Positions 875 through 58,831 are shown, counted from the whole stretch's first letter. The stretch: 63,275 nt of DNA, filler included, from Asterionella formosa (GCA_002256025.1; 9 parts of 9 records of this genome joined end to end with filler, not necessarily neighbours in it), one strand, 5' to 3'. Program-made: numbers and translations. Notes: a model not told the origin generated them from the letters alone.

Positions 875-3308
875 CCTACTACTTCTAGTTAGATACTTCA
901 GCACTTTGAATTCAAAAAGAGTCCAATTAGAATTAATATTGTTGATGTCCTCTCAAGTTCCAGTGGTCCCATTGATGAAGGATAACAACAAACTAAACAT
1001 CAAGATTCAAACTTCTTTGTGTATCCTTACAAGCCAGGTCGACATTTGGAGTCTTACAGCAAAGAAATGATCAATTGACGCTCAGGGTAAGCTTGTTTAT
1101 TGATTTCAGTAAATCCTGTGATATGGCTAACACATATATCTTCAGTCCAGCAGATTCCTTGCTTGTTCATCTACTGCTACAAAAGATGACTCACAGATAT
1201 CGTCTTGTCTGACTGGATGAGCGTTGCAATACACTCAGATGCTCAGTCCCACCATTACAGTCTCAACAAGAAAGTCATAGTGATGTGGCTGGAAGATTAC
1301 CCTCTTCGTGATATCTCTGAGAGTCAATAACAGTGGCTGGATGCCATGATATTACTCAATAAAACATTTCAACATGTTTATATTCGACTTCGACTTTGCT
1401 GCCTGTCTCAAGACCACAAAGAAGCTCCTAAAACTCATGATAACTCATCCAGAAGATCAAGAGGTTTTCGCCAAGGAAGATTTGAGGTTGATTGTCATTT
1501 TGCTTGATCGACAATGCGTGGCAACAAGTGTTTGAATGGAACAATGAAAAGAACACAAAATAATTAATTCGCTTGGTTTTGACTTACTTCGAGAGTCAAC
1601 AATCATTCAAAGATCAACTCAAGCACATCCTCAAGCATGAGTTCTACCCTAAGCCAAAATCGACTTCGCATCGCTGAAGGCAATCGTGTTATGTCGAGAG
1701 AACGCGCGTGCCTGGTGTCGATTTTCTAACACAAAATCGTAAATAAATAGTTGAACTTGAAGACAATTCCATGACGCATCAAGAAAATAAGTGTGACTGC
1801 TGTCAATTTTAACAAAAGATCGTCTTCGCATTGCTAAATACAGTCCTGTGATGTATCAAGAGTACAACCACCATTTCAAGCGTAAATTTGTAAATGATAA
1901 TTTTGTACTCAGTGGAAATGGCAGGGCACATGCATTTTAATGCAACCGACCACGCATGGGATATGAAACAACGGTCAAACATAAGGTTCATGGAGTTAAC
2001 ATTACTAACACTACTAACCTTGTTCCTGTTCGGAATCCTGTTCCTGTTCCTCTCCTGGTGTAGAAATTCTACGCGGAGCAAATTATCATACTAACACAGC
2101 TAACTCTATTCATGTTTTTTCTTCCGTACATGTTTAATACAAGCAAATCCATGGGTTTAACCCTATGATGATGTCTGGTTAGGGTACTGTGCTGAGGGCC
2201 ATACCTGCCGACTATTATGAATCTGCCCAGGAAATCTTAGTGGTCATGAACCCTCCTGTTGGTCAGTTAGTGGCCGATGTGCCTAATTAAAAACCAGCAG
2301 AATGCTGGACAGATCGCCTTAACAGAAGTATGTGCGACAATAGCAACAATGCTATGATTTAAATAAAATACATATATATATTTATATTTATGAGCGACAG
2401 CACATTGAATATGTCTTACGTCAATCATTACCTGAATAAATTTTGTTATTTACAGGATAATTACAGGTTGGATATCACCGCTATTGTAACACGGGATATT
2501 TTAAAATGCAAATGTAGATTCAATAAATCATTCCATATGCACATCTCAAGGCCTGATTCCGGTCTCATTCTTTCTTTGCCTAAGAATGCATAAGCTTAAT
2601 TGCATTTCATTCTCATGTCATAAGCAACCCAAGTATGGGTGGCTGCGTTGTATATGCATGACATAAGATGAAGATTATTTGATTGCGGTGGGTCTTGATT
2701 TTTAACTTATGAATGGATTGTAATTCAGGACATTTCGTTGTAAAATCGAACATTTATAATTAATATATACCATGATGCATAGCAGGTATGATCCCACCTT
2801 TTCATCCTTTGCCAGTACTCCGCATGATGCTCCCAAAATTTATTCCGTCAGCTTGTATCTTGCAACAGAAGTACCTGGTCTTAGTACCTTCTGCGAGTTT
2901 GCTCATTTGTCCAGCTAATTAATTTATGATGGATAATTTACAAATACCATGTCCTGTCTGTATGGTGGATATATCAGTGTCTTTCTGCATGTCATGCATT
3001 CCTATAATGATACGCACAGAACATTTGCACAATGGTTTGTTATAATTTGATACACCTATCAAGGATTATGTTTACACATGGAACATTCAAGCTCCTAACT
3101 ATACAGATACGGAAATATGCTGTTATGGCTGAAGTCCTCCAGCACCATTCTATATGAAATGGTCTGTTGAAGAAACTGACTCAATGGGATATCGATAAAA
3201 TCCAACCGACTTCAAATTTTGGTCTTCAAATCTTAAAACAGGATTGAAATGGAACTAGACCATTTGTATGGTTATCTAGTATGCATACATCAACAAACTT
3301 GTGCATCA

Positions 3309-4940
3309 ATGAAAGCATTGTTGGTTGCAGATACACTCATGAGTTATCCTGATCGTAATTTTCCTTTCCATATTTTTTACTAATGTTTCTGATTTTCAAA
3401 TAAGAAACTTTCAAAGAATTTTTTCGCTCTATGTCATTGAATGCGGTTCTACATGTTCACACTGAACATCATATTTTTTTCTTTATTACCCTACACAGAA
3501 ACTCAGCGTGTTCTCCGGTGGAGGAATTATATTGAAGAATATCTTCTCACTTTTCACAATATGAAGGGTACTGATCATGTGAAATATTACAGATTCTATC
3601 TCTCGCCTCCCGAGGCTTGAGTCTTTGGTGGGGGATGATATTGGACCGAAATCTTCAGCATCAACATCCATTTCTACTTTCTCAATTGAAGTAGATGATG
3701 AACCTTTGTTTACCTGTTCCCTCAATCATCCAATTTTGGCAGACAATATTCAATATCCTCTGGAATATTACTTCATACATGATAGACAATTGCTGGATAT
3801 ACAATTGATTCTCAATCAAACAAATCATCTCATTCTCAATCAACAAACACATCCGTTAAAATTTCCCTCTATCAATTTTCATCATATACATTTAAAATAT
3901 TTTGTGAAGAATCCAGGAGATACTTGACGTATTGTTATTCCTAAATCACTATCGAATCCTATTATTTATTGGTATCATCAGATGTTAGCTCATGTGGGTA
4001 TGACAAGATGAAATGCCACAGTTTCTACACATTTTTACTATCCTCCATTAAAAGCAAGAGTGGAACATATTGCAAGCATATATGAAACATGTCAAAACGT
4101 ACAAAATTACCTGATGCTTGGTTTTGGTGAACTTCCAGCACCAAGGAATGCATTGTTATTACAATGCTCAGAAGTCACAGTGGATTTCATTGGTCCATGG
4201 AAGATAACAGTGACTGCACAAGCGATTGAATTTCATGCTCCAACTTGAGTTAACACAGTCACCAATTAACCAGAAATTTCACATATCAATAATAAGACAT
4301 CAGATTATATTGCGATGAAATTTAGAAAATGATTGATTAGACGGATATCTCCGTCCAGAAGGTTGTAAACATGACAATGGATGTCAATTTACTGGTATTC
4401 CTTTCACACACATGTAAGTGTTGAATGGAATCAAAATTGGGACCATTACAGTCAAGAATCCACAAACAAATGCTATCCGTGAACGTTTACATCAATCTAT
4501 CAGTAAAAGTCTATGTACAAGTCATGTTAAAGGCTCATCCTCCAATCTAGGAATTTCAAGTTCAGAATATTGTGGATACCAGTTTGCTGCATCATATGCA
4601 GCTCGAGCTACTATTTATAGTACATTGTGTATTTTCACCAGGAACATGGATTTTCCAACATGATTTGATTACAGATATGTAATTGATATTGGGATATCAA
4701 TGTCGATAAGTGATTATTGACAAATGACTACGTCGTGATAATTTCCGTCGTCGTTCTTGCGATTACAAGGTTGTTGATGAGGTTTTAATCCTATTGGATA
4801 ATCCTTCTACCTTGCTGGATAACCATGGACGAGGTCCTTTTCTATTATTCAAGTATATGCCAATGGTACAGTTACTTTTCAACAAACTATGCATACTACG
4901 GAACGAATTACTATTCATTACATCAAACCTTTTCAAAGGT
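3309..4940 (+). pseudogene. Gypsy pol remnant (RNase H junction and integrase), many stops and frameshifts
   Basis: Fragments MKALLVADTLMSYPDRNFPFHI, VDFIGPWKI, NGIK..ITVKNPQTNAIRERLHQ, a GPF..ANGTV (GPY/F) motif and terminal ERITIHYIKPF. Confidence 0.85.
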
Positions 4941-4967
4941 AAAAGGTTTTCCCTTGGTGTGGGAGAG

Positions 4968-5138
4968 TGAGCGATCTTGCGCATCAATACAGATGTATAT
5001 AGGGTTAGTGTTATATCATATATGTATCAGAACTCAATAATGAGAGAACTCGACTAACCCTCATTGTATACTTTGGTGTCGACTTAGAGAACAAGTTACA
5101 CACAAGGATTAACAAATAAGCTCATATATTCAACAAAT
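4968..5138 (+). repeat. 3' LTR of gypsy element
   Basis: Direct repeat of 701-874, preceded by a polypurine tract. Confidence 0.92.
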
Positions 5139-5140
5139 AA

Positions 5141-8100
5141 CCTGGTTCGATGTTCTCCTTCCATAATGACTTCACCGTCATTCCCGTCATTCTTGTTCAA
5201 TGTCTTTCCTGGTACGCCCGGCGTTGCGTACGACTTAATTTTCATACCGGTCAACTTCTCGTATTCGTGTAGAAGTTGCATACGAAATTTCTTCATCTGC
5301 ACCTCCCAGTATTCACCATACTTGTCCTCTGTCCAAGCATATTCCACTCCTAGGTGTTTCTGTAGAATACCCTGCTCGGTAATATTGAAAGTCTTCCTTG
5401 ATAACATTTTTCATATACTCCACTGCACTTGGAGTCCCACATACAATACCGTCATCCCCGTAATTAACAAGTAGACCATCAATTTGTCCATCGTTGTTCC
5501 GGTGCATAAATAACATAGGGTCAATCTTGCTCTTCGTCATACTTGGTTTATTGGTGACACATTTCGCAAACATCCTGGACCAGCATCATGGAGCTTGTAC
5601 TATCCCGTACATAGCCTTCACAAGCTTGCAAACATGTGTATTGGAATCGACTCCGATCAAACCTTGAGGGGGCTCAATATAAATGTCCTCATCGACGTCA
5701 GCATTTAGAAATTCTGCTTCCACATCAATAGCCTCTGCTCGCCAACCGTTGTACATCGTCACTGCTAGTACCGTTTTGATTGTTGCATCGCTTGCAACTG
5801 GAGCAAATGTCTCAGTAAAATCAACACCTGGTATTTGCTCGTATCCCTCCTTCACGACCAATCTTGCCTTGTAAATAGTCTTCCCGGTTAACACATCTTC
5901 TTTAATTCGAAACACCCATCTCGTTTTTAGTGTTCGCTTCTTAACAGTGTCACGTTTGACAACTTTCCACACTCCTCTCGACTGGAAGTTTTCATATTCT
6001 TTGTTGATCGCCTTGATCCACTCTTTCTTGTCTGGTCTTGCCATTGCTTCATCGTAGCTTGTTGGTAATCCTGGATCAGAAGCCAGACTTGCGTTGTACA
6101 CGAAATTCACCTGTGTATTCTTCGTAACTTCCTTCATATCATCCTCCTTGATAACACCAGGCATCTCAGTATCTCCTGAAATTTTCACAATTTTCGTACT
6201 CGTAGGATTGAACAATGAGTCCAATCTTCGCATTTCACGTGCCAACTTCGCTTGCTTAGACTGAGCACTTTCCGCACGTTTAGCCTTCACAATTGGGGTA
6301 TTGGTACCTGTATCTTCGTATTTCGTAGTATCATCTATCTTAGTTGATTGTTCAGTTTTCCTCCCCAATTCTTGCTTGTCATCATATTCATCTTCATTAT
6401 CGGACACTTCTCGAGGTTTGAACTCGTCATAAAAAACGTCATGCACTTCTTCATTAACTTCTCGTACTGATATCTCCGTATCATGTTGGTTGGTGAACGG
6501 TTTGAACATGTTCTCTAGTCCATCCGTTGGTATGTTTGTTCCGTGCCACTCACTCCACTTTACGTCACGTGTATTGACCACAGTATGATTTGTCTCGTGA
6601 TAATACATGCGATACGTATCTTGAGAGTGGTCATCTGAGTATCCCAAAAAGACACATTTCTTGACACCTTCTCTTATAGTAACCCAACCAACACGTCCAA
6701 ATTGCCTGTAGAGCTTGTAGGGCCGCCTTGCATTCGTTTCTCCATAGAACACATCATCAGGACTCTTCTTAGTCACTGAATTTACTGTACTGTTTGTCAA
6801 TCTTGTCGCAGTATGTACAGCATCTGCCCACAATAGCCCCTGATATTCATCTGTAAACTTCGCACTTAGCATCATAGCGAGTGCTCTCTGACGCACTGTA
6901 ACAAAACCATGTTCCACAACACCGTTGTGCTGCGGAGTATGAGGTGCCGTAAATTCCATCTTGACACCTTGGTTTTCACATACTTTCTTTAGTTGCTTGG
7001 AGTTCTCACCTGCGTCATCACATCGGACAAATTTAGTCTCATGTCCTGCACCTGCAAGTTTTGTGAGTAACGCTCCAATGACAGTTCCGATGTCACTTTT
7101 CTTCTTGATACCAGCGTTTCCTTGTATAATCGTCCATGGCCATCACCCAATACTGATTTCCCACAGCGGATTTTGCGTAGGGTCCGCTAATATCAATAAA
7201 CAGTCTTTTTCCTGGTGTCTTAGCCTTCTCTTGCATCATCTTGGGTACTGCACGTGCTTTCGCCTTGGCTGCTGCGCATCCTGCGCACACCTTTAAATTT
7301 CCAACAAGTTTCCACCCAAATAATTTCGATGTCTCACAAAGACATATTTCCCCCACATGTCCAAGCATTTCATGCGCTTCATTTATTTCCAGGATCACAT
7401 CATTATTTTCGATTACGTTTCTTTTCTCGATCGTTTCACCTATCGCTTTCGTCGTTTTCTTCTTTTTGTCGACTTTCGTCCATTTCTCGTCTTCTTTATC
7501 ATAGTTGATAGATTGTTGTGTTGGCTTCTCGCTTTCTTGTTCAACCTCCAACACCGTTTCCTTTAGCATAGGCGTTCCTTGCACATGGTACATTGCACCA
7601 ATTGTCCTCGTTTCATCACGTTTGCAGATCAAAAATCCGTTGTTGTTTCTGATCGTCATCTTATCATCGTCAAACATAAAATTATTTCCCTTGTCAATTA
7701 TTCTCGAAATGCTAATGATGTTCTGCTTGAACTCCGGTGCATGGAGCACATTCGTGAGTTTCAACGCTTTTCCTTTGTCTGTCGTTGTAAGGGTCACCGT
7801 GCCTGATACGGTCGCAACAATTGCTGTGTAAGGGTCACCGTGCCTGATATGGTCGCAACAATTGCTGTGCCGCCTGTTTCCCACAAGAACAGTTTCATGC
7901 ACTGTGCGCTTGTCATCCATGATGCGCTCGTCATTGCATATATGTACCATAGCACCACTATCTAGTAGCCAACGGTCCTTATGCACGCACGTATGATTTA
8001 CCTCTTCGTTGTACCTTGCTTCAATACACGTCACCACGAACATTCCTTGCGTAGTGGTGTTGGCGTCTTCGCCCTTCTGTTTGATTGGTGCATTTTGTTG

Positions 8101-18516: not shown

Positions 18517-18616
18517 NNNNNNNNNNNNNNNNNNNNNNNNNNNNNNNNNNNNNNNNNNNNTTAATTAATTAANNNNNNNNNNNNNNNNNNNNNNNNNNNN
18601 NNNNNNNNNNNNNNNN
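18517..18616. other. Artificial contig linker
   Basis: N44-TTAATTAATTAA-N44 (stop codons in all six frames). Confidence 0.99.
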
Positions 18617-19772: not shown

Positions 19773-19872
19773 NNNNNNNNNNNNNNNNNNNNNNNNNNNN
19801 NNNNNNNNNNNNNNNNTTAATTAATTAANNNNNNNNNNNNNNNNNNNNNNNNNNNNNNNNNNNNNNNNNNNN
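19773..19872. other. Artificial contig linker
   Basis: N44-TTAATTAATTAA-N44. Confidence 0.99.
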
Positions 19873-23810: not shown

Positions 23811-26800
23811 CTAATTAATGTTCAGTTTCTTTTTTAGCATATGATAGCGGCCCACATCTCCTCGACGTCTTGGCCCATTCATACCAAACATGAGCTGGAA
23901 ATCCTGGTCGGAAAACTCTTCGTGGTTTCCTCTGTAGAATGCTTCTAACTATAGAATATATGAGTGAGTCAATACGCAATCCCATGATGACCATAGGAAC
24001 GAGTCAAAGACCATCATGGCACTTACCTCTTCCATCTCGACTTCCATCATTGCCATGAAACTGGCTGAACGCTCGAAAGAAATAGCAGCAAGTTCGTCGT
24101 CCCAGAATGAGTGGTCGAAGCTAGTGGCGCCTTTTAAATCACGATACAATACAGACCCACTTCGGTCTAAGGCTTCAACTCCATTCAGTGTCAAAGGGGA
24201 TTTGGAGACAATACCCTCGCCATTTGCGATAACTCGAACAGTCTGCATCAAGAGCAATGGAATATATTGCTCCAAAGATGAAAAGGTATAGCCAGTTACA
24301 GCGTTTCCACTTGCCTCGCGGAGATTGTCGCTAGCGCCCATCAAATATTCGCCGAGATCGTTCACACAAGAAGGAATACGAACAGCGTCCTTGGCCACTA
24401 TAGTGGAACTTTTACAAATCTTGGATAAACGAGTGACACTGGAAGGAAGTAAAGACAAGTTAGTCACGGAACAAATAGCATTTTTCAGGTTCGGGCAATC
24501 GACACTTACTTCTGCATGAGCATGTCAATTCTACAGAACTTCGCTACTTTGACACCATGTGCCTTGATTGTCTTTATGGCTTCACGGAGGGCGCGAGTGG
24601 AGGTCAAAGCCTTTTCAAATGCCCCATTATGGCGAACCTTGAGGCGGCACTCCAGCAAACTGGACAACTTCAAAAGACTATGAGCCAGACAAGACGCCTT
24701 CATTAGCTCCTCGTCGGTGCAACACACAATAGAGTTAGAGCGGTCGTCCTTCGTGAAATCCAGGATTGAGGTGAGATGACTCAATTCCTGAATCAAAATC
24801 TGCTCCTCCTTCTCGACACCGCCTCCTAGGTCGAGGTCATCAGCCGTACTTTTTAGTTCGCTTACACTGTTGCGAGACTTTGGGTCACTCAAAGATGGGT
24901 TGAGTGGCGCAGAACTGGGATCCTTGTCGAAGTTATCGTCCATTTGAGTCGCTTCTAAGGCATCACCGTCTGCATACGCATGAAGAAGTTGCGCGAACGC
25001 ATTCCGTTTTTCGATAATTGCCCCAAACGACTTTTCTTTCCCTTCCTTTCCGCTATCTAAGAGGAAACGAAGAGCAGTCTTATCATTGCATAGCTGTCCC
25101 ACACGAGGCTTCACGCGAGAAATAAACGTCAGGATAGCGTGCTCCAAAACTCCCACTAAATGGAGGTACATCTTCTCGTCTTTTGGAAGGCGATGCAAGG
25201 CCAAGAAAAGGGGCCCGGTAGAGTTATAAAGAGCCTGGCAAGCAATACACATGTCGACATCCTGAGGTTTGTTTGAGTTAGGACGACCGTATAACGATCG
25301 ATCGATGACAGGATCAAAGGCATCTTCACGTTCCAACGCTTGAGTAGTTCCGTTAATGGCATCGTGCTGAAGAACAGGAATCAACTGTCTCTTGATGACA
25401 CCATCCAAATAGTGCAAGGCACCTTCCTCCGAAAACTGCCCGTATGACTGACTACTCATATCTTCACCAGAGATAACTGCAAGTTCATCCCGCAGTTCCT
25501 CAGTTTCCCATGACCACTTTGCAAGGGAACGACGGAATTCCAATGCGTGACGGACTTGAGGTGTTGTGTTTGTTTTTGGCATCAGTACATTCGTCACAAA
25601 CTCGCTCGCCGTCTTATCGGTGTTGTTCACACGAACAGAGGCCATAGCCATGGTGTCATTCTTGGCGGCTGCTTCCGTAATACCGAGAGAAAACAATCCA
25701 CGCTCCTGAGAATTCTGAGCAATGTGTTGGCGTTCTTGGTGACTCTGTTGTCCCTGCTGACCCCCGTCCTCTTCTTCAATCAAAGTTCCCCTGAGAAAAT
25801 CTTTTATTTCTCGCTGCATGGCATCGTAAGCGTTGATCAAAACAGAGTGAAGCGCTGTTGCTTTATTCCCGATGGAGTGAAGCTTTAAATCCTTCTCGGT
25901 TGTCTGAAAAGTTAATAGGAGAAATATTTAGTGTCGCCAAGAGCATCAGCAGTCAAGTAAGGAATGAGTGTAGTGATTTCACTTACAATGCGGTAACGAA
26001 AGATTTGCGCCAAATGAGCAAGGCGAATCATGACGCATCCGTACGAAGACAATAATCCTGTTAAATGGCGACGAAAGTCTTTCAAATTTAGCGAGCGCCC
26101 ACGCCGAGGTTGCTGTTGCTTGTCAAGACGGGCAAATGTCTTGGCCTGCTCTTTTTGCGACAGCTTCCGAATCTCGAGTTCGATATTTTCATTCAGGGTC
26201 CGCTCCACATCATCCAAACGTTCCAACTTGGTCAAACATTCCAATAAAATACGCAAGGCCAGGACATGGTCTGCATACCGTGGGAGACTGCGGGTATGAG
26301 CGTCGTCCCATGAATTCCCCGCCATTTCTTCTAGGCAACGCATTTCGTCTGCTTCCAAGTCGAGTTCAGCTTCTAACAGGGAGACAGGAATCATCATTTT
26401 TGTCAACTTTTTGACAACCTCCGGATTCTTGGGGGCATCGTCTCGTGAAAAGAGGGAGGCCCCTGATCCCGCACTATCAACACTCTCGTCGTCACCGACT
26501 CCTGGTCGGCGGATGCGGCTCATGAATGGGTTTTTCATTCCATTCTGAATAAAGCTCCGGGAGTCACTCGCAATACTGGCTCCCGAACTGGGAACCTTGT
26601 TTTCCGTGGTTACTAATTTCTGTTCTGGAGGCGCAGCCATTCCGTTTCCAGTACGCAAATATAGAACATCATAGAGTGTGTCCCAAATTATTTGATCGGC
26701 CCGCTGACTACGCTCCATTAACTGCATACTGATATGCTGCAGAGCGTGGACATGACTGACATTTGTATGAAACGCAACATATTTGGCTCGCGATAAAATG

Positions 26801-27483
26801 TTTGTCGCCGCTCCGATTCGAATCGGTCCCGGCGGTTTGATCAATGCGTCGAACTGTTGCGGAGCAGCTCGAACAATGTCAATTTTAGTCAATAATCCCA
26901 AAACAGCTTCGCATTCCAGCTTCTTCAACCACAACTCTCTGAGCGACATGGCTGCCGCTTGTGCCGCACTTGCTCCCTTTGCATCTCCAGATACCATTCC
27001 AACCGGATTGGACGATCCCAAGGTTTCCTTGATGTCTCTCACTTGTCGTCTTAAATGTCGCACCATGGTAACAGCATCACTGAACTGCCTCGCCACTTTC
27101 CCAACTTGGACCACACTGCTGTTCAGATCAGCACAATGACGAATGGCCATGTGCTCAATGGCATCTTCAACGACTTTCTGTTGTTTCTTGAGTGCGCGAT
27201 ACGCTGGATTATTCTTTCGCAGGTTTTCATAATCTGATATGCTTGAATTGGCATGCATGGCTGCTGGTTCTTCGACTTGCGCGCCCAGCACGTCAATGAC
27301 GCGGTGCAGTGTGTGAAACTTGAGTGGGTCCTCGAAAAAGTCATCATCGACCTCCGTCGTCAAACGGTCTTCCAGTATATCCAAGTCCTCGTGAATATCA
27401 CTGCCGCGGCGATTGGTAACCTGGGGAGGAGGATCGAAGGCGTCGTCGTCATCCCATTCGTTGAACTTGGCGGCCTGACGCAT
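23811..27483 (-). CDS. SEC8: Exocyst complex component Sec8/EXOC4; exons 27483-25987, 25903-24510, 24438-24027, 23948-23811 (~1146 aa)
   Basis: N-terminal Sec8-type coiled coil (VVEDAIEH..DLNSSV..FSDAV..VRDIKETL..LRELW..LLTKIDIV); three GTAAGT..YAG introns (83, 71, 78 bp) join the ORFs in frame. Start codon is a best guess because the frame is open further upstream. Confidence 0.85.
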
Positions 27484-27755
27484 GATTCGTGACAAAGATC
27501 TTGTTTGTTCGTTTGCTTTTGGTCGTTTTTGTGATTCCCCGCCACGAGGAAAAGTCGAGATGTCAAACAGATGCTGAAGTGCTGAATGGTGGGAGCAAAG
27601 GAGAGAATCCAACGGAATTCCTAACGTTTTGGTTGCCTCGGCACACACGACTGTTAGGTTTAGTAGTCTACCTGAAGGTGTAAGAATAAAGGTTGTTGGA
27701 CCAGATCGCATTGCTTTTTCAGGTGGCTGTTGCTTACACGATGTCATAGCCTGTG

Positions 27756-28484
27756 GAGTACCAGGTACCTGGTACCTGGTACCAGGTACTGTATGTAGCC
27801 CGGTAACGGGACGCTTGTACATGGTCCGCCAGCACTGAGCAAAACTCACTCAAGGATGTGTTATTCAATACACATATATCCAGAGATGCATGTGTCGTAT
27901 TACCGTTTTGTTAAAATCATTTGTTGATACGGCAGTACCCCCCCGGTACGCACCAGCAACCGTGTACCTGGTAACTGATTACTTGGGGTACCAGGTACCA
28001 GGGGTACCATAACTGGTTGGAGTATACCCAGTAGTGTATACATACAGTACCTGGTACCAATCAATCCGGATCATATAACGAGCGTTGGGGTGGGCCCCTC
28101 TGCTTTGCCGCCTTGTTATGCAGCACTGTACCCTGGTACCTGGTACCTGGTAGTCTATTTGTATAAAATATGTACGATATACAAGCAATCAACAAGTCGT
28201 TTGATGCATGTAGTAAAGAGGGGCATGCATAGCTATGCGAGGTCTGTATTCTCGGGTTTAAGAATCTTGGTGATTTCGCACATTTACGTTTAGGTTTTTT
28301 TTCCAAAGTTACCTAAACGTAGGATTCCATATTGACTACTTTGAATGTAGTCAATAGAAACCCAATTATCATTATCGTCGTAGAATGACTACCGGTACAT
28401 ATAGGACGCATCATATACGGGTATATCAAATACATATATAAAACAATAGCTATAGGTACCGGTACTCTGGTACCTGGTACCTGG
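27756..28484. repeat. Cluster of GGTACC-containing heptamer repeats, (CCAGGTA)n/(TACCTGG)n
   Basis: e.g. GTACCAGGTACCTGGTACCTGGTACCAGGTAC at ~27758-27789; more at 27964-28060, 28128-28152, 28455-28484. Confidence 0.85.
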
Positions 28485-28650
28485 TGTTGAAGGGAACCTT
28501 GTCGTTAACAAAGGTGAGCTACAATATAATGACTATTCTGTATCTGTGGTCCGCGTATGATTATCACAAAACTGGTATGTATCGGATCTGGTGGCTACGC
28601 TAGTACTGACTGTGTGGCGCATACGTAGATGTCGTACCCAGGGATTAACA
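28485..28650 (-). repeat. 3' LTR of copia (166 bp, TG...CA)
   Basis: Minus strand TGTTAATCCC...CCCTTCAACA directly after the PPT; 129 bp shared with 33949-34077 (4 mismatches). Confidence 0.93.
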
Positions 28651-31600
28651 CACCCTCACCACCAGATTCAGGAAGAAAAGGAAGGGCATTTGGTGATGGG
28701 AATTGGAAGAGGGGGGGGGGGGGGGGGGGGGGGGGCAACCCACTATTTCTTTCGCGGGGGGAGATGATATCAGCATGGGAAGCCAAACACGCATAATAAT
28801 TTGGAGGGGAGGAGGAAGGGAGATTACCAGAGTGTAAATATTGCGAGCGCAATTTAGTGTGGTGGGATGCAGGATGATGTTTTGTAAAATAATCAGCGCG
28901 ATTCAGACTACCTTGCTTCCAATAAACATGAAACTGTCCTTGGCAGACCCTATCCCGAATCCAATAAAAATGCATGTCCATGGCCCTGGACCGTTTTTGA
29001 AACAACACAGTATTATTGGCAATACCACTCTTGCAGTACTGTTGTCAGTGACAATTGGTGTAGGTAGTTGTGGGTGGCCAAGTTCATCAAGGACATTGCG
29101 GATTGCGAAAGCCTCCTTGCCATTATGGAATAAAGCAGCAAGCTCTGCTTCAGCAGCACTGGACAATACTTCCTTGAGAATTTGACAATGTACATAAATA
29201 GCGCCATTAAAGGGGGGAATAATGGCATTGGATTCAGTCGGGGGATGTAAAGGTTTACAACTTAAGAAATGTATTCCAGCAGCCCAAGAATGGCCCCAAG
29301 ATTTGGACAAATACGACGCATCACTTTCAACATGTAACACTATATCGCTGGCAATATATCGAAGTGTGGTCTCAGGATTGGTTGCACAATAGTTTAACAG
29401 CTGAGTAATGGTCTTCATGGGGCGATGGTAGGTTTTGCCTGTTGAGTAGCCAGTGAACCAATTGCTGGTAGCATTGTGCTATCGACAGCACGTGCATAGT
29501 ATAGCAAGGTGCCAAGGACCTCCTGGACACGCTTTTGGTCAGTTAAATCTAAGGCCGGAGTCATGTCCGTGACATCAAATTGTTGGCAAGCGCCATATAT
29601 TGGTGGGGTCCATGCATGCGGAGCATGTTGTGGGTGAACCGGTGGGGGGTGTTCAAGGCGCTGGAGAGCATGGGCAATGTAACCGGGCATGGTGAGATCG
29701 ACTGTACAGTGCTCGTAGTCCCAATGGAGAGTGACACCAATGTATCAAGTGCTTGTCTAATCAGTGGTTAGTCGATATTTTGTGCGTAGGGTTGTGATAA
29801 GGCGGTCCACATCCGCGCGTGGGTGTAATGCACCCCAAAATTGTCAACAACAAGAGTGAACATGAAGTCGCTATGAGTATCTTTCCAAAGACCAGGATGA
29901 GTGATGGGACATAGGAGATAACCGTGTGGTAAGAGGATCTGCTCGACGAGCTGTTCATTGGCAAGTTTTCCAGCCTGTAGGAGGCCATACATCCCACGAC
30001 GAATTTTGGCATATACCTGACCATGAGTGATTTTTGAAGATAGATTATATAACTCCTGGATATGCGGCGGAATCATCCACAGGGGAATTCGCACATATTC
30101 ATACTCATCGCGGGGTAAGTGGCTTTCAAGGTAGAAATCGGATAAATCCAGTGTCATGAAGCGACCATTTTGGGTACTGATGGTGCTGTTAAAGAGACAT
30201 TTTGTTGTGGTCAAGTCCGCAGTTTTGGTACTAATGTTTCCAGTATAAATGACCTGGTCACCACCAGCAGCAGTCCACCAGACGCGCTGTGGAAGTTTTT
30301 TCAGGGCGATCCGCACACACAATACGTATATATGTTGCACGTTTGTTTACAGGGATTTGATGTTTATGGACAAAGAAACAGCAATTTGTGCCAGTTGGCA
30401 TTTGGGTATTGGCACCGAGACCCTGGAACAAACAGCCAATCTCAAGGCCATTAGCAGATGCCCAGAGAGGAGCAGTGGTGCTGCATGATAATAATTCTTT
30501 GTATACCGCTTTTTTCCAGTGTCCGGATTGAGTGCGGTGCCGTGGAAACAGAATGCGATGTCAGGGGGAAGGAGGGAGGTGGCGGGGTCACTAATAAGTT
30601 GTGTTGCTAGAGCAGCTTCTTGTGTAGGGGGGGGGGAGGTGTATATGACTGTTTTTGTGGAAGAACAAGTGGTACAGCTAATGCCTGGGTGGCACGGCGT
30701 TGCTTTTGACGGTTGCGACGACCTTGAGGCCGCAATGGGGTGAGCTGGTGGTGAATGGCCTCGACTGTGTGCAACAGCATCACGATAAGACATATGTGGG
30801 GGAATGGCCTGTTCAGGTAGATCCATGGGAATGACAGTGCCTATTTGTAGGGGCATCATCCTCAGTGGATCTGTACAGGGTGAGTCAAAGGAGTGCATGG
30901 GGTTGTCATCATTGGGAATCACTGCATGCTGGTCAGTGGTTGTGCTGGGGGTGACGGCCACCCTCAGTGATGTTGCATGGGGGGGGGGAGGGACAGGATG
31001 TGGCTGGATAGTGGGAGAGACAACGGGCGGAAGAACGGTAGAAAGAATTTCGATGAGCTGCTGTATGGCAGCTTTGTGGGTGGCAGTGAGGGGGGTGACT
31101 GGGGAGGGGGATGTTGGATGATTTAGGGCATGAGCAATGTCCTGCAAACTCGTCGCAATGAGATCCGTTGAAGAAGTGGTAGGAAGTACAACCTTGGTGG
31201 GGAACCATGCCACGGTGTCACAGATACGTGGTGTGGTGCGAGTGTCCCACATCCATATATGGTAACACCGATAGGAATCCAATGCCGGGCCAACATACCA
31301 TCTGTCTAGAGCATGTGGGGACCAAGTGGTGCGATTTTGTGGTTTTTCGTGCACAAGAACACGACAGCCTGGTGGCGCCAATGGACAGCGATTGTAATCA
31401 AAGATGCCATGGACCTGTGCCCATGCAGATAATTTGGGATTAATGTGGGAAGCACGGAGTAAGTTTAATGTCAGTTCAGCTTGGCTTATTAATTGATCCC
31501 ATAAGTGGAGGGGAAAATCCTTATCAACACCACAAAGCCCAGCAATGAAATGATTTTGAAAAGTCCTTATGGCATGCTCGGCGGCATTTCGATGGTGAAC

Positions 31601-33936
31601 TGCAGGCGGAACTAATTGGAAATCAATGGATTCGACGTCAAGGAACTCTTTGAGGAGGGTAGAACATTCATTGTCCAATCTTTGTAATTTTGGGCGAAGG
31701 CCTGCTTGACAAAAGCGGAAATGGAGGTGTTTGTAGGCCGCAAGAAGGCAGGGAGCTGTACAATTACAAAAAGGCTGGGCAAAAATAAAATTACTGTCAT
31801 AATCATAAATAATCATGACATAATTGTTGCCAGTGCTGGATGGCAGGATGAATTTTCCAGTTTGATCAGATTATATTTGGCCAGTGGGAGTGATGACTGC
31901 AGCAAAACACATGCATGTTAGTAGGAGTATCAATTCCCAAAGGGTGCATGTCGGTAGTGCAGTCGTTGTTGTCAGGGGATGGGATGGACGCATTGGCAGG
32001 AATCATGGGAGCTGCTATAATTTTTGTTGACCGCTGATTTTGGCGAGTTTGGTCTAGGTGCCCTTTGATGGTTGCAATGGATTGGGGTGGATGTTTATGG
32101 AGCATATTAAATGTAAGGCCAGGGAAATTTGTTAAGAAACCGTTGGATAGAGCTTTTTCCAAGGTCGAAAGGGCAGGAGAGAATAAGGTGGCATGGTCAA
32201 AAGCAACTAAGTCAGCCGCTTTATGAGTTCCAATCGCTGTGGCAGCAGAATGTGTGGGATATGAGGGCGGGCTAGTAGGCATGGCTGTGCCAGTAGTGGA
32301 CGGGACATGCCACAATTTTGTGGTGGTAGATCGGTGGCCTTGTAAGATACAACATCCATCTATCAAGACATGCATGTGTGTTCGGGTGAAGTGGACATCA
32401 TAACCAGCATCGCACAATTGTCCAATGGAAAGTAACAAGCAATTATGGAGACCAGGAACTAGATGCATATGTCTTGCATCAGGGAGAAGCATAGGAAGAT
32501 CAAGTTCAGCCTCATGAGTGGAGAAGACCTGGTCGCCATTTGGGAGTTGAATTGTGATGGGTTGTGTACTAGTGGGGCGTTTGTTTAGCACAGGTAGGTC
32601 AAAGGTGGCAAAATTTCCAGAACTACCAGAATCGGCAATTAGAGTGATGGGGGGGGGGGTTAGCCGGCATAACAGATAAACTAGCATTAATAGCGTTATC
32701 CGCTATGACTTGCTCCCCTCGGGGTCACACATTGGAAGGTGGGGTGGGAGAATTTGTATGGGTTGGCGCACGAAGGGTGCAAGAAGGCCTGGTGCCATCG
32801 CTGAACATTCTGGCACTACCACCCAGACGTTTGTCAAATGTGGCATGGTTCTGATGGCCAGGAGCAGGATGTGCGCATGTTGCACTGGTATGTTTGTGCT
32901 TTTTGGTTAGACCCAGCAATATCCCAATTGTATACTGTTGCAAGAGAAAGAATTATGGACAGAAGGAATCACGTGAGTAGCCGCCGCAATACTGGTAGTA
33001 GGTGTGTAATCATGAGTCTGCAAGGCAGCATGGGCACCATGATAACCAGCTGTGGAAGCAGTGAGAAGCCGAAGGCGTTCTTTGTCCCCATGAACAAAAT
33101 GGGAACGAAAAGTGCTCAATGTGTGTTCCAGGTCAGGGCGATCATGCCACGTGCGGATACTATGTGAATATACGCCAGTTTGTTCCAGGGCAGACAAAGT
33201 AAGCCTCATAACGGTGCTGTCAGAGAGAGGTTCACCACCTGATTGGCCACAGCACAGATGTGTTTGATTCGAATCCACAGATTTTCGATTGGCTCCTCGA
33301 GATCATTCCATGTAGTAGATAAACGCATGCGATTCAATTCCAAATCATCAGCTGTCAATGTAGCATAATTTTTTTCTAAATGATCAAGCAACCGAAGAAT
33401 GGTGACATCTGCATATCCAAATGTATTGTCCTCAAGCACATTGTAATATGCAGGATCGACAGCTGTGAGAATTTGTTGACGCAATGCCTCAGTAACCTGG
33501 GCATATCGGCGAAAAGTGTCTAACAAACAATCATATTGCCGGTTAGCAGCAGTGAGTTGAGTGCCAGGATGAACTGGAAGAACAAAAACCTCGCCAGCAC
33601 GAAGAAGATACTATGCAGCGGGCATGACAATACCCAGGAAACCGTTGGCTCCGCCTCCACCAGTGCAGTGGACGGAGCGCGCATTGGCATACACCTCCTT
33701 GCGGAGTTGAGCCACAGTGAGAATCGTAGGCTTTCCATCAATTGGCGTGAGGAGGGGATGAGGAAAGGGGAAAACAGGTGCAGTGGAGGAAAAAGTCATG
33801 GTGATGGAAAATGTAACAGGATGGATGCACATGCAAGGTCTTTTGGAGTCACAACGTCAAGAGCGACGAAGGCACGTGCAAGAGATGGCAACAAAAAGGG
33901 GCCACAACGTCAAGAGCAACGAAGGGGGGTAAAAGG

Positions 33937-33948
33937 ATATTGTAGCTC
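33937..33948 (-). promoter_or_regulatory. Primer-binding site complementary to its own LTR (self-priming candidate)
   Basis: Minus-strand GAGCTACAATAT immediately follows the 5' LTR and is the exact reverse complement of LTR positions 33980-33991. Confidence 0.75.
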
Positions 33949-34077
33949 TGTTGAAGGGAACCTTGTCGTTAACAAAGGTGAGCTACAATATTATGACTAT
34001 TCTGTATCTGTGGTCAGCGTATGATTATCACAATACTGGTATGTATCGGATCTGGTGGCTACGCTGGTACTGACTGT
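33949..34077 (-). repeat. 5' LTR of copia, outer ~37 bp missing
   Basis: Matches 28485-28613; similarity stops abruptly at 34077. Confidence 0.92.
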
Positions 34078-34664
34078 TCTGTAAAATCCACAATACAATG
34101 AGATAGCTGTATCCAAGCCAATTCCATACATGCAAACCTTTTCCTGCCACTTGGCTAATCCTTCAACCATCACAACTGCTTCCTTCCAGGACTTTGTTGT
34201 GACATGTGGCTTATGATACCATTTACTCTGGAGCATGCTTGCCTGCATATATGTCCTTGTTTGCTTTAGCCTCACATCTCACCAACAAAGCATCCCTTGA
34301 TGTTTATCACGCCTTTAACTCATATTTTCATATTGGTTTTTACATGCAGTGGTACCAGCAACAAGTACTTATGTAATTGTGATTTGGAGATTGTTGTAGG
34401 AAACCCATTAGGGGCAACAAGTGCAAAGGTTGCCATTGTAGCTCAGCTCTGGAAAACTTGAATCTTATAGCTTCCTTTATTTTAGTTGATTCATAAGTGA
34501 TGTCAAATATTGTGAGACAGAGCAAAACAGTAAAATTTCTGCAGTTTGAAAAAACTTGACTATTACTGTGAAATGGTAGTATATGTAAGCACCCGGTGAG
34601 TGCAACATTCATTCCATTTCGTTTGATTTCTTTCAGAAAAACATTGCAGGATAAAATTATAATG

Positions 34665-35570
34665 TCACAACTTGGCCAGCTTTGGTAAACTCCCATAAAC
34701 TGGCAAATGGCATTCGTCAGCAATCTCCACCAAAGGCAAGAAGGTATACGCACTTCCCCCATCCACGCACATGACAGCCCCGGTCACATATGATGCTCCT
34801 TCACTTAATAACCATACTGTAGCTGATGCAATCTCCTCTGGGGTCCCAAACCTCTTCGCTGGAAGTGTAGGGAGTATTTTGCCTACAAAGTAATCTCCAG
34901 CAGGTCCATAGTTGGCAAAACCAGATTCGGTCCAGATAATCCCTGGTCTAACGCAGTTGATGCGAACTGACGATTCCATCCATTCCGTACACAATGTGGC
35001 AGTCATGTTTTCGACACCAGCTCTGGCAGCACCTGAATGGACCATATGGGGCATGCCGTTCCGATTGCCGAGAGTGATGTTGACAATAGAACCTCCGTGG
35101 TCTCGCATGTATTGAGTATAGGCTTCTCGACACATTAGAAAAGTGCCCATGAGATTTGTGTCCACAACAGCGGCAAATCCTTTCGTCGACATATCAGCGG
35201 CAGGGCAGACAAACTGTCCTCCAGCGTTGTTAACGAGCATATGCAAGGCACCGTAGGTAGAAACCACGTGGGAAATCAAGGCTTGAATTTCTGATTCTGT
35301 TCGCAAACTTGTCGATGGTCCAACGACTACTCGTCCTGTCGACGTTTTCGTGTGCTGTAGTATGTCGTTCATTTCCTTGGCAGCACTCCGACATGTCTCG
35401 AGAGTCCTGGACGCAATCACTACAGTTGCGCCAATTGAGGCCAACTCAAAAGCGATAGCACGACCAATTCCAGTTCCTCCTCCCGTCACGAGGGCAATTT
35501 TATGTTCCATCAAGTCGTGACGAAAACATGTCTTGTAGGATGTGGACGATTCAATGATGGTCGACGGCAT
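34665..35570 (-). CDS. PECR: Peroxisomal trans-2-enoyl-CoA reductase (SDR family)
   Basis: 301-aa intronless ORF; TGGGTGIG, NNAGGQF, HSGAARAGVEN, RINCVRPG, VDGG; C-terminal PTS1 AKL. Confidence 0.9.
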   Translation of the reverse strand: MPSTIIESSTSYKTCFRHDLMEHKIALVTGGGTGIGRAIAFELASIGATVVIASRTLETCRSAAKEMNDILQHTKTSTGRVVVGPSTSLRTESEIQALISHVVSTYGALHMLVNNAGGQFVCPAADMSTKGFAAVVDTNLMGTFLMCREAYTQYMRDHGGSIVNITLGNRNGMPHMVHSGAARAGVENMTATLCTEWMESSVRINCVRPGIIWTESGFANYGPAGDYFVGKILPTLPAKRFGTPEEIASATVWLLSEGASYVTGAVMCVDGGSAYTFLPLVEIADECHLPVYGSLPKLAKL

Positions 35571-38486: not shown

Positions 38487-38764
38487 GTATACCTGCAAGT
38501 TGCGGTCATTTTGCTGAAATTGATGACGTGACGTAGGACAGGCGTTACTTACATAGAAAACGTCATCAATTCACTCTTTAAAATCGTCTGCATGCATGGT
38601 GACCGCTTAGTGATGAATTAGGTTTTATGCTAATTTTATTCTTCAAAACAGGGAAATGTCAAGAAAACAAACAATGACCAGGGCAATAGAGGGGGGGGGA
38701 CTATCTCTGTCCAGTGAAAAATGAGAGAGTTTTTCACCTCGCAAGAAAAACACGACTTCATGTT

Positions 38765-38960: not shown

Positions 38961-39641
38961 CCACTACCTTCGCAATCTAGTGTTTTATATGTATAAAGTA
39001 ATCTCAAAATCGTAGCTAAATGGTTATATAGCTAGCAGTGCCTACGAGAAAAAAGAATTGCAGCATGTTACTTTGTCTATGTCTAGAAACTTATTGGGTG
39101 GTGTTTGGTGCCACCACGAAACAAATGTACATGGGGGGGGGGGGGGGGGGGCGGCGGGGGGGGGGGCGGGGGGGGGGGGTTATTAAAATCGGAATTCATA
39201 GTAGGAAACTCCTTGATCCCTGCCGTTTTTACAACCCTATTGATGTTTTCTCCGAACTAGGGTTAAACCGGGGCCGCAACCTTAATGTAGAGAAGTGGCA
39301 GTTATCCCTCGTAGATTTTTTAAAAAGCTTGATGGCCCCCTTTTTGACTATTTTTTGGATAGTTACAATTCCAAGAGGGATAACTGCCACTTCTCTCCAG
39401 AAATGAGGTCCTTGCCATATCTGAATATAGATCATACCACTAAGGCCGTCGCTAACCGTTGACCCAAACCAAAATCCAAAACTTATTTTTGGATTGGTTT
39501 TGGTTTTGGTCAACTGACGCAAAAACGATGCTATCGGTTTTTGTGAAATCCTAAATGTTGTCAACCACCCATCTACTGTGACGCAGGATGACAAAACCAT
39601 TATAAAAAAAGTAAATTATTTCTATTAGACTACTCTTACAA

Positions 39642-43406: not shown

Positions 43407-43506
43407 NNNNNNNNNNNNNNNNNNNNNNNNNNNNNNNNNNNNNNNNNNNNTTAATTAATTAANNNNNNNNNNNNNNNNNNNNNNNNNNNNNNNNNNNNNN
43501 NNNNNN
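43407..43506. other. Artificial contig linker
   Basis: N44-TTAATTAATTAA-N44. Confidence 0.99.
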
Positions 43507-44661: not shown

Positions 44662-44761
44662 NNNNNNNNNNNNNNNNNNNNNNNNNNNNNNNNNNNNNNN
44701 NNNNNTTAATTAATTAANNNNNNNNNNNNNNNNNNNNNNNNNNNNNNNNNNNNNNNNNNNN
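44662..44761. other. Artificial contig linker
   Basis: N44-TTAATTAATTAA-N44. Confidence 0.99.
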
Positions 44762-45487: not shown

Positions 45488-45626
45488 TTAAGGTTCCTGC
45501 ATTTCAACCCTCCAAAAGTGCAGAAAGGAACTTCGGTTTTTTTAACTATGCTGAAAATAGCGGATTTTACTGGGCCAACTTGTTTATTTGGCCTAGTTAA
45601 AAAGCCCATGTTCCTTTCTGCACTTT
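45488..45626. mobile_element. MITE-like derivative of the Mutator-like element at 15298
   Basis: TTAAGGTTCCTGCATTTCAACCCT and TGCAGAAAGGAACTTCGGTTTTT shared with 15298-15549; perfect 17-bp inverted repeat 45515-45531/45610-45626 extending imperfectly inward. Confidence 0.8.
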
Positions 45627-57288: not shown

Positions 57289-58345
57289 CTTTGTATTGGA
57301 ATCCAGCAATACAAAGTGAAAAAGTAATTTCCCAAAGCAGGGTTGACCTTGTATTGGCTAGCTTCGTCGTTAGGGTTGTGAATCCATGCTCTCGACAATA
57401 CAAGGAAATAGGCTCTTTTTTCCAATACAAGGTATTCCAAGACATGACTGGAATTTTTCCCCAATACAAGGTATAAATAGTTTCTCCGAAATAGGGTTTA
57501 GTATCCAATACAAGGTGAACCTTGTATTGGTTCTACTATTTCGCATCCACCTTGTTGTATTGGTTAATCAATCAGATCATCAGTTCCAATTTAAGGTATA
57601 CCTTGTTTTGGACATGACCATAAAAGGTGTACCTTGATTTGGACCCAATAACTCATTTGCGAAACCCATAACAGTACGAGGATAATCATTTTTAGGGTAA
57701 TAGCAAACTAATATCTATAATAGTGTAAAATTTTGAAAGTATACATTACTGTATGATGATATATATCAAAAATAACGGTTTTATCCATATGCATCATACT
57801 ATATGATATCGTATTTACACTTTACCAGGAGCACTATAGACCAACACAGGTTCAATCTTGAAATGCAAAATATTGTCACCTTGTAGAATTGGGACTTATG
57901 ACCTTGTATTGGGATGAGATGTAGTACCGCCAAAACCCAATACAGGGGCAACCTTGAATTGGAAAATATTGTCACCTTGTATTGGAACTTATCACCTTTT
58001 ATTGGTGTAACTCATGACCTTGTATTGGGATATGACGTAGTATAGCCAAATCCCAATACAGGGGCAGCCTTGAATTGCAAAATGTCATCACCTTATTTGG
58101 AAATAAGCAGAGCCCAATAAAGGGAATTCCTTCTTGTGCCGGATGATATATTATGACAAATAAAGGAAAACCTTGAATTGGAGTTATTTCCGGATATGTT
58201 TTCTCCTTATATTGGACTTGACATACTGACCTTTCGCGAATACAAGGTGAATCTTGTATTGGAATGGTATATCACCTTGTATTGAAACAAAACCAAATGA
58301 CAAATACCTTGTATTGGAAAACTTTATGATGCCAAATACAAGGTA
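57289..58345. repeat. Bipartite array of ~30 CCAATACAAGG/CCTTGTATTGG motifs in both orientations
   Basis: Clusters 57289-57645 and 57841-58345 around an AT-rich spacer; perfect CCAATACAAGGT-GA-ACCTTGTATTGG at 57505-57530; higher-order duplication within 57857-58095. Confidence 0.9.
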
Positions 58346-58831
58346 TGCCTGGATTTTGAGGACGAAAACCGGTTGAAAACGTACCAAAAATTGCCAACAT
58401 CCGTCTGTGATATGATCCTTCAATATCCTTCATATTGGCGCGCCAAAATATGTGCATGTAAATTAACCCGTCTATCTGGTACCATGGTACCAGGTGCTTA
58501 AGTCAAATGCTTATTATGCATCTTGGAACAAATACTAACCATAGTAACTGGTACTGCACCGGAATCTCTTTCGATGTAAGCAGGATATTTATTCCTTTGA
58601 TATACCGGTACTAAAATTAAATGTGTATTAATGCATGTACATATATATATAAATATATATATATAGATTTAAATACCACCGCCTAGCAATACCAGTAGCT
58701 ATATACCGGTATGTAGTCTATATCAATTTCTTTTCCATCTTTCAAGCTCATTTTACCATTCATCATTGCCCAGTTTTCTATAGTAACACTGGTAATAGTC
58801 TCCACCATTGTATTCTCCTTTCACATCCAGC

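Follow-up and report, generated by a model that had tools for sequence, protein, structure and literature searches.

A conserved hairpin at the LTR/internal junction suggests tRNA-independent self-priming in a diatom Ty1/copia retrotransposon family

We analysed a stretch of 63,275 nt from Asterionella formosa (GCA_002256025.1; nine parts of nine records joined end to end with filler), the whole of which is called the window below. Its 704 N occur in runs of about 100 (18517-18616, 19773-19872, 43407-43506, 44662-44761 and others), and we read it as a gapped scaffold. The sequencing runs containing this DNA bear freshwater, lake-water, riverine or algae metagenome labels, or no organism label. 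An LTR retrotransposon, the only copy of its family within the window, lies on the minus strand between two genes: an ORF of the short-chain dehydrogenase/enoyl-ACP-reductase type (34665-35570, minus strand; adh_short_C2, E = 3e-47) and an ORF whose Sec8_N exocyst match falls slightly under the cut-off (25912-27849, minus strand). Short repeats of the GGTACC/TGGTACC type fill 27758-28498, and the 3' flank of the element begins inside them. In the order in which they would be transcribed, the parts of the element are:

28485..34077, minus strand: the element as a whole, a dead Ty1/copia retrotransposon (CoDi-like) with gag-PR-IN-RT-RH order and broken ORFs
33949..34077, minus strand: 5' LTR without its initial 39 nt; 129 nt, 96.9% identity to the 3' LTR
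33206..33856, minus strand: gag-like region in two frames (33856-33611 and 33610-33206), placed by its position before the protease; no Pfam match
31866..32702, minus strand: protease region with DSGSSGN, a motif read by eye; no Pfam match
30347..31870, minus strand: integrase region, with diatom homologues and a weak match to PF25597 SH3_retrovirus
29768..30346, minus strand: reverse transcriptase region with VVDNFGV, from translation; the piece in the window has no Pfam match
28903..29478, minus strand: RNase H region, assigned from its position after the reverse transcriptase and a DAS-type motif read by eye; no Pfam match
28653..28663, minus strand: polypurine-type tract GGTGGTGAGGG, abutting the 3' LTR
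28485..28652, minus strand: complete 3' LTR, 168 nt, TGTGTTAAT...CTTCAACA; unrelated flank follows

The two LTRs appear as direct repeats (33949-34077 and 28485-28613) that are 97% identical. Their termini are of the form TGTG...AACA and a polypurine tract is present, while the conserved LTR start TGTGTTAAT is found in the 3' copy only, directly after GGTGGTGAGGG. This copy is inactive, with broken ORFs and a truncated 5' LTR; we call it dead because its ORFs are split over many frames. It has no target-site duplication, since the 5' LTR lacks 39 nt. In a relative that retains two LTRs with genomic flanks (L019), the flanks have only the bases CAT in common. A run of about 25 C on the sense strand separates the RNase H region from the 3' LTR (about 28696-28744).

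Stop-to-stop translation of the element gave ORF pieces among which Pfam made a single match, the weak one to SH3_retrovirus. The order of the Pol regions is nevertheless legible as PR-IN-RT-RNase H, and integrase before reverse transcriptase is the Ty1/copia order. When 8000 candidates were scored against the integrase, at least 427 homologues were found at E <= 1e-5; those with names are diatom proteins (Fragilaria crotonensis, Phaeodactylum tricornutum, Nitzschia inconspicua), and the integrase of the window is 56-57% identical to Phaeodactylum tricornutum proteins. Two of the homologues (P0051 and P0119) carry a precomputed PF07727 RVT_2 annotation. An intact relative, L021, encodes a gag of 383 aa and a pol of 1267 aa, in which an integrase SH3-like domain (residues 421-471) is followed by RVT_2 (residues 820-988); PF07727 scored 31.1 bits there against a cut-off of 31.6, and 23.8 bits in L019. 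The element had previously been described as copia-type, and the PR-IN-RT-RH order, the diatom relatives (some with PF07727) and the position of RVT_2 after the integrase in L021 all agree with that description. Pol homology to diatom copia elements likewise places it with the CoDi elements, whose LTRs are given as 153-844 bp (Maumus et al. 2009, PMC2806351). It shares with them its diatom host, its Ty1/copia organisation and its short LTRs.

The preliminary description of this DNA had also claimed that the 12 nt after the 5' LTR are complementary to a 12-mer inside that LTR. The match proved exact: read on the minus strand, ATATTGTAGCTC (33991-33980) is the reverse complement of GAGCTACAATAT (33948-33937) at 12 of 12 positions, with a loop of 31 nt (33979-33949) between the two arms. 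As the direct repeats delimit the LTRs, 33949 is the last base of the 5' LTR, and the 3' arm follows it without a gap. The 3' LTR, too, contains the 5' arm (28527-28516) and the loop. The post-LTR sequence of the element does not start with TGG, which bears out a second point of that description, namely that the primer-binding site (PBS) lacks the TGG start. The features of the junction are:

33992..33995, minus strand: CATA, initiator-like and immediately upstream of the arm; its CAT is invariant in relatives
33980..33991, minus strand: 5' arm ATATTGTAGCTC within the 5' LTR, the presumed self-primer; presumed cleavage after 33980
33949..33979, minus strand: 31-nt loop, which begins ACCTTT and finishes TTCAACA, the LTR end
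33960..33979, minus strand: inner stem-loop ACCTTTGT / ACAAGGT, part of the minimum-free-energy fold
33937..33948, minus strand: 3' arm GAGCTACAATAT, the candidate primer-binding site, which is the initial 12 nt past the 5' LTR and the complement of 33991-33980

When 33995-33930 was folded as RNA, the minimum free energy was -19.1 kcal/mol (z = -5.73), and 0 of 200 shuffles folded as well. This fold includes an inner stem, in which ACCTTTGT (33979-33972) pairs with ACAAGGT (33966-33960) with one bulge. The inner stem had been noticed before, and its presence in this copy stands, but as a family feature it was rejected: just 50.8% of its cells are paired in an alignment of 25 sequences, and it is kept only in the subgroup to which the window element belongs.

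Matches to the 12-mer with at most one mismatch number three in the window (the PBS and the arms of both LTRs), while the mean in shuffled sequence was 0.38 and three matches were reached in 1 of 100 shuffles. Taken by itself the hairpin is unexceptional in this DNA, because the window as a whole has 10 perfect hairpins of at least 12 nt with loops of 8-90 nt, as compared to 0.29 per dinucleotide shuffle; such a count is what might lead one to see a chance inverted repeat here. Chance does not account for its location at the LTR/internal junction together with its conservation in the family with compensatory changes.

The conservation was followed in 77 related metagenome loci that were retrieved by means of an integrase alignment including 20 homologues (47-77% integrase identity); many of these loci are circular permutations or tandems from assembly. 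In 341,603 nt, made up of 76 loci and the window element, with L001 outside the set, a blind scan for stems of at least 10 nt and loops of 8-90 nt yielded 70 perfect hairpins, and 36 of them were at the homologous place, as recognised by shared flanking motifs. That place precedes the integrase start by about 2.0-2.3 kb or, where a contig is circularly permuted, follows it by 3.2-3.8 kb; three of the 36 fall off this spacing (L019 at -1044, L049 at -2877 and L074 at -1634). Stems of at least 12 nt occurred 29 times at the homologous place versus four entries, representing two sites, elsewhere. The hairpin is present in L001 as well. Counted by locus, a perfect hairpin of 10-14 bp sits at the homologous place in 34 of the 77 loci, and each matches the arm of its own LTR. 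Four further loci come close: there is a 1-nt bulge in L015 and L016, and pairing is 11/12 in L054 and 11/13 in L072. By a positional criterion 32 loci were long enough, of which 25 have the perfect hairpin, and most of the non-hairpin loci among the 77 are too short to include the junction. The hairpin is absent from L046 and L069, both of which have room for the junction, and this counts against self-priming.

The family shares a common order of elements: polypurine tract (..GAGGG), LTR start TGTGTTGA, U3, CAT(A), an arm of 10-14 nt ending ..TC, the loop, and the PBS. A GAGGG|TGTGTTGA-like junction precedes the LTR in the window and in 20 of 27 hairpin-bearing loci. Loops measure 27-55 nt in the relatives, and within them the start AyCkTT and the end TCAAyA are conserved; the LTRs range from 108 to 602 nt. 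In L036 the LTR is 5'-truncated and the PBS matches the arm of its own 3' LTR, while L057 consists of a 3' LTR and flank only. L019 (hairpin 1787-1837, ORF 2269-6228) has its junction about 1 kb before the integrase as compared to about 2 kb in its close relative L007, and L072 has a 3.7-kb repeat unit (repeat 177-261 / 3900-3984) in which the hairpin is kept; both look like shortened or deletion derivatives that have kept the LTR-PBS hairpin. Many members, including L005, L007, L008 and L009, end their LTR in ..CAATA, that is in TA and not the canonical CA, while the start TGTGTTGA is conserved. A scan of viral_contigs with the protease ORF found no relative.

Compensatory change between arm and PBS had been named in the preliminary description as the check on self-priming, and the family provides it abundantly. 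There are 24 distinct arm sequences, the one in the window included. The 3' arm mostly starts GAGCT or GAACT, and the variants GTTCT, GACCT, GAGTT, GAAGT, GAATT and AGATC also occur, each in exact match to its own LTR. Standard pairs occupy the nine inner positions of the helix throughout an alignment of 25 distinct sequences (25 of 25), a cell count that, through shared ancestry, overstates the number of independent events; if only the pair types in excess of one are counted at each position of the arm helix, the floor is about 20 double changes. Changes on both sides were seen at 10 of 13 pairs, and one pair shows all four Watson-Crick types; pairs 33-76 and 29-80 are invariant, and 32-77 and 30-79 are nearly fixed. 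The arm helix holds a single G.U cell. The covariation score was 0.465 against a shuffled mean of 0.129, and 0 of 500 shuffles reached it. Sliding the partner by 1-3 columns lowered the paired cells from 80% to 28-37%, and RNAalifold, when given no structure, predicted the same 12 pairs. The chance reading was thereby refuted by the family scan and the covariation, as 34 of 77 loci have a hairpin in the same place, built from 24 different sequences; we regard its probability as negligible.

The same alignment bears on the primer. Only about 3-4 of the 12 PBS positions are conserved, and this is therefore incompatible with a shared tRNA primer. That a host tRNA, a half-tRNA or another small RNA complementary to GAGCTACAATAT might serve as primer, as in copia and Ty5, finds precedent in the half-tRNA PBSs of several Ty1/copia lineages (PMC6317226). 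The PBS of the diatom elements, however, differs at most positions among relatives while the LTR of each element matches its own variant, and it has no TGG start. ARAGORN found no tRNA gene in the window, and Rfam placed no family at threshold on 33700-34200, where it gave three sub-threshold chance matches. We consider priming by such a host RNA very improbable. The earlier inference of tRNA-independent self-priming in a Ty1/copia element thus gains support from the covariation and from the variability of the PBS.

Covariation proves that the pairing is conserved, not that it primes. The arms could belong to an RNA structure that serves packaging, dimerisation, translation control or 3'-end formation, with a different primer at work, and a conserved hairpin with no assigned role does occupy the PBS position in fungal copia elements of the GalEa type (PMC5445492). 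Against this, the LTR boundary falls on the stem. Wherever the LTR end can be fixed independently, it is the last base of the loop and is directly followed by the 3' arm. This holds for the two LTRs of the window, for the two LTRs of L019 with their genomic flanks, for L036 (3' LTR and flank) compared with L037, and for L057 (3' LTR and flank) compared with L074; past the same point the 3' LTRs run into unrelated flank. Contigs from other copies, RNA as well as DNA, diverge exactly at 33949 and 28485 too. The 3' end of an LTR is the point where minus-strand DNA synthesis starts, and in four independent comparisons this boundary coincides with the first pair of the stem. An alternative PBS was not seen either, there being no conserved sequence past the 3' arm (alignment columns 89 onward) and so no other conserved candidate beyond the stem. 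Finally, a single G.U cell is unusual for a purely structural helix, and is what copying of the PBS from the primer would produce. We therefore think a purely structural role unlikely, if still the least improbable of the alternatives.

Self-priming of the Tf1 type, independent of tRNA, best explains the family, and we judge it quite probable; in it we infer the start, the cleavage and the primer. The genomic RNA would start at or just after the conserved CAT(A) of the LTR. Its first 12 or so paired nucleotides (33991-33980) are predicted to fold over the 31-nt loop and pair, as RNA, with 33948-33937. The RNase H of the element may then cleave directly 3' of the 5' arm (...GCTC|A), as in Tf1; TC|AyCkTT is conserved around the presumed cut site in the family, though as a cleavage signal it is only suggestive. 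The 3'-OH freed in this way would prime minus-strand strong-stop DNA by copying the loop 33949..33979, presumed to be the remainder of R plus U5. The model would explain why the LTR ends right before the 3' arm, because priming from the freed 3'-OH would copy the loop. In general retroviral replication, plus-strand strong-stop synthesis takes the PBS sequence from the primer, and here the PBS would likewise be copied back from the RNA primer. Re-copied from the primer in each cycle, it would therefore be a perfect Watson-Crick PBS in new copies, and we propose that this is why 24 perfectly matched arm pairs exist with virtually no G.U.

The position of the transcription start can be approached from the LTR. 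In all 25 aligned sequences a CAT precedes the 5' arm by 2-5 nt; the wider table shows yCATA(A), with CAC instead in L037, L049 and L059. Initiator-like motifs of diatoms have been given as CAY+1A and TCAH+1W (Kadono et al. 2015, PMC4686930), and TCATA of the window (33996-33992) fits both. Transcription, which the preliminary description had put near 33991, would then begin around 33993, two bases upstream of the arm. A start at the T of CATA would leave 2-3 unpaired nucleotides as a 5' overhang on the primer arm, which counts against the model; in Tf1, pairing starts at +1. Under the same model R plus U5 would span only about 45 nt, and this too would count against it.

Four sequencing runs that bear on the element consist of assembled contigs, which do not reveal where transcripts start or end; neither poly(A), a cleaved primer nor strong-stop cDNA was seen. 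Family members of about 90-93% identity occur in three metatranscriptome runs of one study. One RNA-library contig (record 15, run X10), 99.7% identical to the window, covers 34349-33980, from the upstream flank through U3, and stops exactly at 33980, the last base of the 5' arm and the presumed cleavage site; this counts against the model and could reflect read-through transcription, DNA carry-over or an assembly break. Further contigs end at 33967, 33961 and 33977. The stop at 33980, if it is not an assembly break, fits a self-priming of other geometry, in which the primer is the arm of the 3' LTR or, in trans, that of a second co-packaged RNA, for example an RNA whose 3' end falls just past the arm, with R as the arm and U5 as the loop; the arm is indeed present in both LTRs. 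A 3'-terminal primer would, however, be blocked by a poly(A) tail, and the 27-55-nt spacing and the CAT before the arm fit an intramolecular fold-back of the 5' end. We know of no element that primes in this way, and we hold this geometry to be improbable. The 5' fold-back remains the reading that we prefer.

The nearest known system for this fold-back is Tf1/Tf2 of Schizosaccharomyces pombe (Ty3/gypsy), where the PBS after the 5' LTR complements the leader of the element itself and not a tRNA. The diatom family resembles Tf1 in its duplex of about 11-12 nt, in the need for a cut after the 5' arm and in an element-specific PBS. It differs in that the diatom loop is only 27-55 nt and the inner U5 stem is not conserved, and in that the diatom arm probably begins 2-4 nt past the presumed transcription start rather than at +1. 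With integrase before reverse transcriptase, as opposed to the order RT-RNase H-IN of Tf1/sushi, it is not a member of that clade. Self-priming of Tf1 was shown experimentally; that of the diatom family is predicted from sequence. To our knowledge, experimental proof of self-priming exists for Tf1-type gypsy elements only, and prediction for a few plant lineages. Self-priming is described as established for Tf1 and proposed for the Tf1/sushi group (PMC5445492, PMC6317226).

Neumann et al. 2019 (PMC6317226) predicted self-priming in silico for two groups of plant elements, TAR among copia lineages and Tcn1 among gypsy clades, and the same paper cites an earlier proposal concerning Houba and Osr-1. 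As TAR has been predicted already, self-priming in Ty1/copia is not new in principle. Like TAR, the diatom elements are Ty1/copia elements without a tRNA-type PBS and with predicted self-priming; unlike TAR, they form a diatom and not a plant lineage, so that the likeness is one of description. GalEa is reported to have a 'conserved hairpin site' in place of a PBS and no complementary U5/LTR sequence (Donnart et al. 2017, PMC5445492). These 'branch 1' copia elements share with the diatom family the lack of a tRNA PBS and a conserved hairpin right after the 5' LTR, but the GalEa hairpin is a local palindrome downstream of the LTR, whereas the partner arm of the diatom hairpin is inside the LTR. 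Half-tRNA priming, as reported for copia, Osser and Bianca, uses a PBS that matches an internal part of tRNA-Met or tRNA-Ile (PMC6317226). Such elements are again Ty1/copia with a non-canonical PBS that does not start with TGG, but their PBS is conserved, while the diatom PBS varies and co-varies with the LTR. For diatoms or CoDi elements we found no report of self-priming in the full-text literature, a body outside which most subscription journals and Repbase Reports lie, and the main text of Maumus et al. 2009 (PMC2806351) mentions neither PBS nor tRNA.

The diatom copia elements add to the copia superfamily a family-wide case of probable self-priming that is backed by covariation. On balance we favour, with less assurance than the priming reading itself, the broader view that a Ty1/copia lineage across marine and freshwater diatoms has abandoned tRNA primers, that a duplex of about 12 nt closes an R-U5 loop of 27-55 nt, and that the PBS is rewritten in each cycle. 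If true, these elements would be invisible to annotation based on tRNA PBSs and immune to silencing aimed at them; together with the hairpin-bearing fungal GalEa elements, they would point to hairpin priming as an old or recurrent trait of copia 'branch 1'. Pipelines that require a tRNA PBS would miss or mis-bound such elements, and the family suggests a simple annotation rule, that is an LTR end followed by a PBS complementary to the sequence after CAT(A). The 24 matched primer/PBS variants form a natural series for studying recognition by reverse transcriptase and RNase H. Diatom copia elements are reported to be stress-activated and to shape genomes (PMC2806351), and the findings bear on a proposal that places hairpin priming before tRNA priming in the history of LTR retrotransposons (PMC3601003).

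Several other repeats were observed elsewhere in the window. A direct repeat at 775-874 and 5039-5138 is 98% identical, with its copies 4264 nt apart and an alignment that extends to about 175 nt each. The two copies could be the LTRs of a second, smaller element, and no matching PBS hairpin was seen by eye at this repeat. Perfect inverted repeats lie at 38518-38571 (12-nt arms, 30-nt loop), 39289-39396 (22-nt arms, 64-nt loop) and 45515-45626 (17-nt arms, 78-nt loop), and a cluster of inverted repeats built of CCAATACAAGGT / ACCTTGTATTGG units occupies 57346-58346.
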